Below are positions 60,001 to 63,000 of a DNA stretch of 64,000 nucleotides, one piece after another. Position numbers: made by a program. Within the stretch, counting starts at the first letter, position 1; every line of letters begins with the position of its first letter. Origin of the DNA: Escherichia coli (GTDB lineage: Bacteria > Pseudomonadota > Gammaproteobacteria > Enterobacterales > Enterobacteriaceae); assembly GCF_017348835.2 (NCBI RefSeq), contig NZ_CP071375.1, one strand, 5' to 3'.

Positions 60001-63000
60001 GTGATATTTCACCGATAACCTCGCCAACCAGGGTTACTTCCTGGAGTGCGCGAGATTCATGAGACAGCACCAGAAGCGTATTTTTTTGCTGGTTAAATTC
60101 TGCGCCGGACACATCATCTAAAGTAAATTGCCGTTGTAGTGCCTCGTCTTTGCTGATGTGTAATTCATTGCTACTTAACAGCCCGTTAACTTTGTAGACC
60201 TCAATCGGATTTTTCTCTTTAAAAAACCAGAAAGTGTGATCCTGGCGAGAATAAGCCAACCCTTCAAAACCGCAATTGGTTGGGGAGTCTTGCAGCGGGA
60301 TTTTTATTTTTTTGAGGATTTTTACTTCCGAGTTTGGGGTCAGTGAAATCACATAAATGGCGTAATCGCGCTCATCGCTAATGACAAACTGATTATCGCC
60401 AATGTATTCGATCGTCTCGAGATCCTTAACAAAATCCAGAGGAATTGTGCGGATAAAATCACCATTGGTGGTCATTTCAACAATGGCGGCAGGTTTGTTG
60501 ATAGTGCTAAAAAGAGTATTGCTTTGTGCCGACCAGGTCAGCGAAGAGATATTATTCGTTATGCCTGCAATTTCTTTGCCGTCAATGGTGGCGTGGTAAT
60601 TCTGAAATGATGCTGCATGATTGCTTTTACGGGCGCAAGATTGCACGAAGAAAGTACACACTGCCACAATGGCAAAAAGAATCACAATAACGGAGATGCG
60701 TTTACTTAACGAAATACTTTTTGTCACGGTAATCCCTTTAAGGCAAATCAATAAGATATCGAGAAGTATACGTAGCGACCTTAATGAATCCTTAACGCGG
60801 AGAAACCCCGTAATGTGCAATGCAGCGCCAGACACCATCCTGCTGGCAATAAATTGACTCAGTCTGCCCAGGGATCACCCATTGTATTTCCTCGCCGGGG
60901 GGACAGGTCAGCCAAATGCATAACCCGCAGCCGCCGCGTAAATCACGGGGAATATCGCTGACGCGAAAAGTCATGCCCGCTGCCTGCAACGCCTTGCGGG
61001 TTTGTATGACGCCGACCGTGGAGTGAAATAAAAATAAAAACTCTTTCATCGGCGTGTCCTCACTCGTTGACCAATTACCGCCGCGCCAATTGCGCCAGCA
61101 AATTGCGCATCAGGATGGGTATTTACCGGCATTCCCAGGTGAGATTCCAGCATCCGGGCAAACGTCTGGCAATGACTAACGCCACCAGTAAACAGAATCG
61201 GCGCTTCACAGGAGAGACGAGCAATGAAATTGGCACTCCTCCGCGCCATCGCGTTAATCACTCCGGCGAGAATCGCTTCTGGCGCGACGCCCGCTGAGCG
61301 CAGGCTGATCACTTCTGATTCGGCAAACACTGTGCACATACTCGTGATGGCATGCGGCGTGACATTTTCGGTAATGCTGTCGAGTTGCTCGACGCTGGTG
61401 CCAAGCGTGCGCGAGATCACCTCCAGGAAACGCCCGGTGCCCGCCGCGCATTTGTCATTCATCAGGAAATCGCACAGGTTACCGTCATCATCAAGCTGAA
61501 TCACTTTGCTGTCCTGACCACCGATGTCGATTACCGCGCGCGTTGCTGGCGCAAGAAACCGTGCGCCCAGCCCGTGACAGGAGATTTCCGTCACTTGTTT
61601 ATCGGCAAAATCCACCAGTTGCCGTCCGTAGCCGGTGAGCGTCAGAAACGGCGTTGTCTCTAACCCTTCGCGCAGAGTTTCCCAGGCTTCAGTAATTGCT
61701 GTTGCCGGGCGAAAGGGGGTTGGAACGAGGAAACGGCGCGTAATCACGCCGTCTGCCAGTAAGATCCCTTTGGTGGCGGTAGAACCAGAATCAATGCCAA
61801 TCGAATATGTCACTGCCACTCCTTACAGCATCTCAATAAAGGCCGCGACACGGGTACTGAGCTGCCCGACATCCGAGGTGGAGTAGTCTGTTTCAATAGC
61901 GATATAAGGAATGTTGTGCTGCTGGCGCACATGACGTTTAATCGCCAGCGATTCCACCGCGTAGGTATGGCACGCCTGCAAAATCACATCAACAACGCCA
62001 TCGACCTGATATTCTTCCACCATCTGGCTGAGCATTTTCAGGCGCTGATCGTTCGGCGAAACACAGGAGCAGCCAATCGCCAGATATTTATCCGCCAGCG
62101 CGTCGTAGACATCGCCCGTTTCTGCCACGCATTGCTCGGTCGCTTTCGCCCCGGTGCAGTTTTCATAACCGACAACCCAGCCGCCATTCTCTTCAATCGC
62201 ACGCACCACTTTTTCTGCTGCGCCGCCAATCGGGCAGCCGGTGATTAAAATGCGTGGACGCGGGTCCAGTCGCTGGCCTTCTTCCCACTGCTGACGAACG
62301 CGGGCTGTCATCGCGTCCAGTTCATTGATCAACGCCTCTTTATCGAACCGGAAGGTTGCGCCGTAAACCACTTTCAGAATGTCGCTGCCGCTAAGCGCCG
62401 GAGGATTTAACTGCCCAAGATGATAAAAATTAGCTAGTGCGCGACGTTCGCGGTTTTTCAGAGCAATGGCATCGCGCAGAGCATCTTCGCTAATTTCGTG
62501 CCCAAAACGTTCTTCCACCGCTTTTTGTAAGCGCAGCATCTCGGCTTTCCATAACGCACGCGAGGCATCGTCTTTAACGCTGTTTGGCAGCTGCATCACA
62601 TGAACAGGCTTAAACTCCGCCATGTATTCATACATTTTCTTTTTGCCGTCGCAGGTGGTTTCACCGACCACCAGATCAGAAAAGTAGAAGTAGGGGCATT
62701 TATCGGTTTTGCCAAAGCCGTAGCTGCTTTTAATCAGCGGGCAGAGGTTGCGCGGCAGATCTTTCTCCGCTTCTTCAATGGTTTCATCAGAGGTAGAACA
62801 GAGCGAAACCACAACCGCACCGGCTGCCATCGGGATCTCTTGCGGCATAAAGGTGCAGTAAGTGCCAACCAGCGGAATGCCGCGCTCCTTGAGATCCATG
62901 ACGGTGAGAAAGCCTTTCTGGCGAGCTTCAGAGAACTGATCGAAAATGGCGGGTAGATCGGTGACAAGTGACATGATTTTCCTTCCCCGTACCACGGGAG

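Follow-up and report, generated by a model that had tools for sequence, protein, structure and literature searches.

ytiA, a conserved DUF3343 gene overlapping yjiL at the end of the yjiM-yjiL-ytiA operon of Escherichia coli, and the GTG start of the adjoining yjiK

We analyzed a 64,000-nt stretch of Escherichia coli contig NZ_CP071375.1 (assembly GCF_017348835.2), hereafter called the window, with positions counted from its first letter. In this stretch the yjiJ-yjiK-ytiA-yjiL-yjiM-yjiN region spans approximately 59.8–63.0 kb, with every gene on the minus strand. The best explanation of the region as a whole, to which we assign a probability of roughly 0.85, is that the conserved operon yjiM-yjiL-ytiA has its 3′ end here, with yjiK, a gene that evolves separately, coming next. 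The 85-aa open reading frame (ORF) that overlaps the end of yjiL is the gene ytiA; it genuinely encodes a protein of the DUF3343 (Pfam PF11823) family, and purifying selection acts on it in no frame but its own. The neighbouring yjiK begins at a GTG codon at position 60727 and encodes 286 aa; it does not begin at the ATG upstream. We consider it nearly certain that these two statements hold jointly. Both the small ORF and the GTG start already belong to the standard E. coli reference annotation, and there is nothing new in either. As formulated in the first-pass annotation of this DNA, the finding is an ordinary one, two reference-annotation facts re-derived from raw sequence, and it serves as a sanity check on the first sequence reading, not as a discovery. 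Compared with E. coli K-12 MG1655, to which the region is 98.4% identical, the window has the same ytiA and yjiK genes, the same coordinates relative to yjiL, the same 4-nt overlap and the same GTG start, with strain-level sequence differences only.

Evidence that ytiA is a protein-coding gene

The first-pass annotation pointed to an 85-aa ORF overlapping the yjiL stop codon through the sequence ATGA. This ORF is present in the sequence at 60792..61049 (minus strand), begins with MKEFLFLFHS and is annotated as ytiA. Its counterpart in MG1655 (b4715, YP_009518833.1, ‘uncharacterized protein YtiA’) is 258 nt long and likewise overlaps yjiL by 4 nt. RefSeq, which names the product “DUF3343 domain-containing protein,” annotates ytiA in each E. 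coli genome sampled (5,390 with a match). ORF length by itself is uninformative here, because 57 ORFs of at least 40 aa overlap the surrounding 7-kb stretch. This abundance of spurious ORFs of like length is what favours a reading in which the small ORF arose by chance and owes its Pfam match and conservation to the adjoining genes.

The remaining evidence points the other way. YtiA matched PF11823 (Se_S_carrier, formerly DUF3343, ‘putative Se/S carrier protein-like’) with 49.3 bits, twice the cut-off of 25 (E 3.3e-13), over positions 2–57 of the 69-position profile. A search of 5.8 billion proteins returned 138 relatives at E ≤ 0.001, down to approximately 55% identity. These include proteins from Citrobacter, Klebsiella, Raoultella, Kosakonia, Phytobacter and Atlantibacter, and orthologues across genera share 55–75% identity. 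Conservation is strong over the first 65 residues, where the Enterobacteriaceae orthologues all share the motif DIPRxLRxGCGLC; the last 20 residues vary. Among five orthologues, the ratio of nonsynonymous to synonymous differences (pN/pS, Nei-Gojobori) was 0.08–0.28 in the ytiA frame vs. 0.95–6.3 in the two other frames, so that purifying selection is frame-specific; moreover, the ORF lies for the most part clear of other genes. The fold prediction is also confident, the AlphaFold2 model of YtiA having a predicted local distance difference test score (pLDDT) of 91.3. Taken together, the Pfam match, the relatives, the conservation pattern and pN/pS effectively refute a chance origin, to which we attach a vanishing probability. 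With its conserved position after yjiL (see below) added to the Pfam, pN/pS and relatives data, the small ORF of the yjiL-yjiM-type operon proved to be a real gene, as the first reading had supposed.

The literature on E. coli YtiA is sparse: nearly all matches for ‘ytiA’ concern an unrelated gene of that name in B. subtilis and Yersinia (rpmE2), and one preprint names the E. coli protein, solely as a low-confidence predicted interactor. No NCBIfam model matches either YtiA or YjiK.

The yjiL-ytiA junction and probable translational coupling

The plus-strand letters tcat at 61046–61049 read ATGA on the minus strand, and these 4 nt (61046..61049) are common to the ytiA start codon ATG (61049..61047) and the yjiL stop codon TGA (61048..61046). 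A Shine-Dalgarno (SD)-like GAGGA (61057..61061, minus strand) precedes the ytiA ATG by 7 nt and falls within the 3′-terminal part of the yjiL coding sequence. We surveyed YjiL homologues at 80 loci, one genome per species, ranging from Escherichia to Firmicutes, Synergistota, Deltaproteobacteria and a methanogen. All ORFs at these loci were searched with a DUF3343 hidden Markov model (HMM) and then with a broadened, iterated HMM built from 85 representatives out of a 1.8-billion-protein search. Conservation of the small ORF beside yjiL homologues, which the first-pass annotation had named as a check, was observed throughout the Gammaproteobacteria. A PF11823 gene stands directly 3′ of yjiL, with start and stop overlapping, in 9 of 9 gammaproteobacterial loci (E. 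coli, E. albertii, Citrobacter youngae, Superficieibacter, a soil metagenome-assembled genome (MAG), Hafnia, Morganella and two Aeromonas). The Pfam assignment was confirmed for the three most divergent orthologues, those of Hafnia, Aeromonas and Morganella.

The junction is a 4-nt ATGA or GTGA in seven of these nine loci. The soil MAG reads GTGATGA, giving a 4-nt overlap from the GTG or a 1-nt overlap from the next ATG according to the start chosen, and in Hafnia the overlap is 11 nt. Purine-rich SD-like runs recur at the same place in the orthologous junctions: GAGGA in the window, and strong GGAGG or GGGAGG motifs upstream of the DUF3343 start in Hafnia, Morganella and Aeromonas. In some Escherichia and in Superficieibacter the motif is weak.

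The overlap persists while the start codon itself is ATG in some loci and GTG in others. At the level of gene architecture this is good evidence for coupling, and from it we infer that ytiA is translationally coupled to yjiL. In such a mechanism, a ribosome ending yjiL at UGA would already sit on the ytiA AUG and, assisted by the GAGGA 7 nt upstream, would make YtiA in step with YjiL. We consider it reasonably probable that coupling contributes materially to YtiA synthesis. A competing account, which we regard as tenable but the less probable, is that ytiA is real yet translated independently from its own Shine-Dalgarno sequence, the overlap being compact packing that does not set the YtiA:YjiL ratio. 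It draws on the GAGGA, from which ytiA could initiate by itself, and on the strong GGAGG-type motifs of Hafnia, Aeromonas and Morganella. ATGA is, besides, the commonest overlap type in bacterial operons and does not always confer dependence. It also weighs against coupling that ytiA, yjiK and yjiL go unmentioned in the accessible text of ribosome-profiling or N-terminomics supplements. Independent translation is, however, harder to reconcile with an overlap kept in nine loci of several genera despite diverging surroundings and ATG/GTG switching, or with the weak SD-like motifs of some lineages (L003, L006), where termination-reinitiation would matter most.

The start of yjiK and the spacer upstream of it

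The longest yjiK ORF starts at an in-frame ATG (60836..60838, minus strand) inside the ytiA codons for Q-Q-D-G; it encodes 323 aa and overlaps ytiA by 47 nt (60792–60838). That an ATG-initiated yjiK would overlap the small ORF had been noted in the first-pass annotation. The plus-strand letters cac at 60725–60727 read GTG on the minus strand, 37 codons downstream of this ATG. From that GTG, yjiK (59867..60727, minus strand) encodes a 286-aa SdiA-regulated-domain protein (PF06977, E 4e-94) with an N-terminal signal or lipoprotein-like sequence, and a 64-nt gap separates it from ytiA. The proposal that yjiK starts at 60727, which removes the overlap, agrees with the reference call: in MG1655, yjiK (b4333, NP_418753.3; 861 nt, 286 aa) has the GTG start. 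The Prokaryotic Genome Annotation Pipeline (PGAP) starts yjiK at this codon in strains that belong to different phylogroups, and independent gene calls made on contigs of E. marmotae choose the same position.

Comparison with related sequences supports this call. E. marmotae has an ATG at the exact position of the yjiK GTG. E. coli SCPM-O-B-8794 (L003) carries an in-frame TAA four codons upstream of the GTG, which closes the extension. The divergent yjiK allele of E. coli O157:H7 strain 611 (L002 and L088) lacks the 37-codon extension altogether and starts at a TTG six codons downstream (MKKRITFIVFL), after TAATAA and GGAG, at the charged residues just before the hydrophobic segment. An SD-like AAGGGA (60733..60738, minus strand) stands 5 nt upstream of the GTG and is identical in four E. 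coli sequences and E. marmotae; the upstream ATG has only an AGG directly against the codon, without a properly spaced SD.

Translation of yjiK also, or instead, from ATG 60838, yielding a 323-aa form that overlaps ytiA, would fit several observations. No stop codon interrupts the 37 extra codons in the window, in phylogroup B2 strains or in E. marmotae; the intergenic part of this extension is highly conserved; and a promoter reported inside ytiA (see below) would put both starts on the transcript. Yet the TAA of L003 interrupts the extension, the O157 allele is without it, and the ATG has no properly spaced SD. Conservation of the spacer is nucleotide-level and leaves almost no variation of the synonymous type, a pattern that does not resemble coding constraint. 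A longer protein would have its signal or lipobox sequence buried, with the cysteine moved to residue 68, and all current annotations use the GTG. We therefore judge the 323-aa form highly improbable.

Counted from the GTG, YjiK has N-terminal Lys/Arg residues (including Lys3) followed by an 18-residue hydrophobic core, and an 11-residue lipobox-like motif places a cysteine at residue 31. The lipobox pattern used was PROSITE-style. The sequence FVQSC is retained in the O157 allele. A signal anchor, as described in the first reading, is possible for this N-terminus; it may instead be a lipoprotein signal with Cys31.

The 64-nt ytiA-yjiK spacer (60728..60791, minus strand) is unusually conserved. 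It differs from E. marmotae at 3 of 64 positions, vs. 20/79 and 17/88 in the flanking coding DNA, and from L003 at 4 of 64, vs. 15/79 and 8/88 in the flanks. An RNA element was rejected as the cause, as the spacer folds no better than shuffled sequences (z = +0.74) and has no Rfam match at E ≤ 1. A promoter and terminator scan found neither a sigma-70 consensus nor an intrinsic terminator between ytiA and yjiK. The spacer is probably a DNA-level regulatory region for yjiK, and possibly a transcription-factor site controlling this gene, whose family is named ‘SdiA-regulated.’

Shimada et al. (2014; PMC3946193) assigned to yjiK an RpoD-holoenzyme promoter, CTGACC-19-TACAAT, obtained by systematic evolution of ligands by exponential enrichment (SELEX) and described as lying in the ‘yjiL-yjiK spacer.’ We placed this motif by eye at 60881..60911 (minus strand), within the ytiA coding sequence; the consensus scan missed it. 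When that study appeared, ytiA was unannotated. This literature SELEX site, the sole promoter evidence for yjiK, suggests that yjiK can be transcribed independently of yjiM-yjiL-ytiA. Among the loci surveyed, yjiK adjoins ytiA only in Escherichia, and in Superficieibacter it is 850 nt away; it therefore lies outside the conserved yjiM-yjiL-ytiA unit.

In O157:H7 strain 611, the gene for the type III secretion system effector EspX6 (espX6, 2.2 kb) is inserted between ytiA and the divergent yjiK allele. The sequence ceases to resemble the window at 60839, and thus the last ~16 ytiA codons are replaced in O157:H7; the resulting 88-aa YtiA variant keeps the conserved 65-residue core.

Possible role of YtiA in the YjiM/YjiL system and the surrounding genes

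The first gene of the operon, yjiM (61823..62974, minus strand; 383 aa), encodes a double-cubane-cluster-containing anaerobic reductase. YjiM scores 532 bits against NF040772 (cut-off 350), is also matched by Pfam HGD-D and has the 7-Cys pattern with slightly relaxed spacings; it is a bona fide double-cubane protein. The upstream overlap partner of ytiA, yjiL (61046..61813, minus strand, as in RefSeq; 255 aa), encodes a BcrAD_BadFG / acyl-CoA dehydratase activase-type ATPase according to PF01869 (E 1e-76) and TIGR00241 (364 bits, cut-off 125), and is the activase-type ATPase of YjiM. The two genes are paired in most of the 80 loci. At the 5′ end of yjiL, two in-frame GTG codons lie two codons apart (GTG GCA GTG; 61813–61819, minus strand), and the annotated start is the second (61813, 255 aa), 5 nt past an AAGGAG that overlaps the yjiM stop codon.

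In having an NF040772 7-Cys protein and an activase-type ATPase, YjiM/YjiL resembles DCCP/DCCP-R of Carboxydothermus hydrogenoformans (Jeoung and Dobbek; PMC7317905, PMC9351452). DCCP/DCCP-R has been described as a two-component system, whereas in enterobacteria ytiA is present as a third, conserved gene of the operon. YjiM has been proposed to belong to a class of its own (II), in which the substrate channel is more open (PMC7317905). YjiM/YjiL is among the small number of E. coli enzyme systems that have a nitrogenase-like [8Fe-9S] cofactor and no known substrate. Its conserved third gene, encoding a putative sulfur/selenium (S/Se) carrier, together with the YedF-like, lyase-like and DUF3343 genes beside the pair in other phyla, offers a concrete and cheap hypothesis on its physiological role.

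YtiA is a small stand-alone protein of 85 aa with the family cysteine, in keeping with the size (~65–100 aa) and cysteine content of PF11823. Of the YtiA residues, Pro34 and Cys41 alone are invariant when 76 family sequences are aligned (76/76 each); Gly42 is present in 74 and the second cysteine, C44, in 57. The YtiA motif C41-G-L-C44 (CGLC, of the CGxC type; codons at 60918..60929, minus strand) contains both cysteines. Lin et al. (2015; PMC5322559) reported a highly conserved cysteine in DUF3343 proteins and proposed that these act as selenium or sulfur chaperones. The YtiA model has the order beta-alpha-beta-beta-(short alpha), then a C-terminal beta hairpin, which we take as a predicted ferredoxin-like fold. 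It resembles the UreE C-domain, CutA and PII-like proteins, all of them generic ferredoxin-like matches, and Foldseek returned nothing at E < 0.001. YtiA had no match to TusA (PF01206) at E ≤ 0.01, and no TusA-type chain stood among the fold matches listed. With no solved relative and no Foldseek match below this threshold, YtiA is therefore not a TusA-family member.

The genomic contexts of the family point to sulfur and selenium trafficking. DUF3343 genes stand inside the operon in three non-gammaproteobacterial loci, in the orders DUF-M-L (L014), M-DUF-L (L019) and L-M-DUF (L057). The first of these, from a Firmicutes MAG, reads YedF-like(TusA)-Aminotran_5-DUF3343-YjiM-YjiL-rubrerythrin, and a second Firmicutes MAG (L016) reads YjiM-YjiL-LysR-YedF-like-...-Aminotran_5-DUF3343-MoeA. 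A YedF-like gene directly follows yjiL in three Terrisporobacter loci (L015, L017, L020), an Aminotran_5 gene (cysteine desulfurase / selenocysteine lyase-like) does so in another Firmicutes MAG (L031), and further S/Se-trafficking genes lie near yjiM/yjiL in L025, L050 and L063. Altogether, approximately 11–12 of the 71 non-gammaproteobacterial loci have such a gene within 6 kb, and the slot after yjiL is held by non-homologous small cysteine proteins in different lineages. More distant DUF3343 genes, on metagenome contigs (L093–L095), directly follow YedE/YeeE-type Sulf_transp genes; one distant DUF3343 gene follows a gene for a TusA/DsrE protein, and another follows Aminotran_5 beside a TusA protein gene.

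The DUF3343 genes described by Lin et al. (2015; PMC5322559) beside YedF and selenocysteine-lyase-family genes belong to the same Pfam family as YtiA and share its size and invariant cysteine, and their contexts (TusA/DsrE, Aminotran_5 and YedE-like genes) were recovered independently here. The gene of E. coli and other Gammaproteobacteria differs in belonging to the yjiM-yjiL operon and in lacking YedF and lyase genes as neighbours, and the YtiA clade in matching only positions 2–57 of 69 in the profile and having a variable C-terminal hairpin of its own. The neighbours of ytiA are yjiL, yjiM and yjiK, and the association with YedF, selenocysteine lyase or YedE was not found at this locus; this association is contextual and is not required by PF11823. 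As side observations, the Firmicutes yjiM/yjiL neighbourhoods echo the ‘selenium module’ that Lin et al. (2015; PMC5322559) described, and in L094 and L095 DUF3343 overlaps the Sulf_transp gene by 11 nt, in the usual position of the TusA-like YeeD/TsuB.

Our best reading from family context and structure prediction, held at less than even odds, is that YtiA serves YjiM/YjiL as a thiol-based S/Se carrier or relay. YtiA would be a small cytosolic protein with a ferredoxin-like fold, whose Cys41 (in CGLC) would carry or relay a sulfur/selenium species or a thiol-redox equivalent, with transfer to or from the ATP-driven double-cubane [8Fe-9S] reductase system. By analogy, YtiA plausibly works like the TusA, YeeD (TsuB) and YedF carriers. 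These too are small cysteine-dependent proteins, encoded beside YedE/YeeE-type transporters and desulfurases, and the YedF-like gene of Terrisporobacter occupies the post-yjiL position that ytiA holds in E. coli. They differ from YtiA, which lacks a TusA Pfam match and has only generic ferredoxin-like fold matches.

A narrower version, which we think unlikely, is that YjiM/YjiL acts on, or is supplied by, S/Se species on Cys41. An example would be supplying SelD through reduction of a persulfide, perselenide or selenotrisulfide bound to protein, the same slot being filled elsewhere by YedF-like TusA-domain proteins or by a module of YedF, lyase and DUF3343. It is supported by the YedF-like, Aminotran_5 and DUF3343 genes that flank yjiM/yjiL in Firmicutes, by the conservation of ytiA after yjiL in Gammaproteobacteria, by a STRING table linking DUF3343 to an activase and an HGD subunit in Slackia (Lin et al., PMC5322559), and by co-occurrence with SelD, double-cubane proteins having been reported almost only from SelD-containing genomes (Haft; bioRxiv 10.1101/2022.07.06.499078). 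The STRING and SelD observations also count in favour of the carrier role in general. If true, YtiA would link double-cubane reductases to selenium/sulfur metabolism, Haft’s near-exclusive co-occurrence would be explained, and E. coli YjiM would gain a testable physiological substrate.

Several points weigh against a carrier role. The second cysteine of CGLC is missing from some family members (present in only 57 of the 76), and no solved-structure relative of YtiA was found. The S/Se-carrier label of PF11823 is a comparative-genomics prediction, and the literature yielded no biochemical data on S/Se binding or transfer for any member of the family. Double-cubane systems have been described as two-component (PMC7317905), and a DUF3343 gene lies within 6 kb in only 4 of the 71 non-gammaproteobacterial YjiL loci. 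DUF3343 as a universal YjiL partner was accordingly rejected, the count being four even with the broadened, iterated HMM, and double-cubane systems thus do not universally include YtiA.

The main alternative, which we rate as only a little less probable than the carrier role, is that YtiA is not an S/Se carrier but a structural or assembly partner of YjiM/YjiL. It might, for instance, be a chaperone for cluster maturation, a small redox protein of the CxxC type or a regulatory subunit. Tight operon membership in Gammaproteobacteria, the CGLC motif in 75% of the family and a generic ferredoxin-like fold like that of the UreE C-domain, CutA and PII-like proteins would all fit such a partner, and the carrier label (PMC5322559) is a putative one. 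Nevertheless, the other contexts of the family are all those of sulfur/selenium trafficking (YedE/YeeE-like transporters, TusA/DsrE, Aminotran_5), and in Terrisporobacter it is a YedF-like TusA-domain protein that takes the same post-yjiL position. The absence of the protein from most double-cubane operons also argues against an obligate assembly factor.

The window is 100% identical to E. coli strain A29 (L001) across 2.1 kb. In that strain yjiK-yjiM are identical to the window, while yjiN and mdtM are frameshifted pseudogenes. The frameshifts belong to A29 and are absent from the window, whose yjiN is open as far as the window reaches, so the two are different strains. A truncation of yjiN at the window edge was likewise rejected, as the gene reads open and simply runs off the window.

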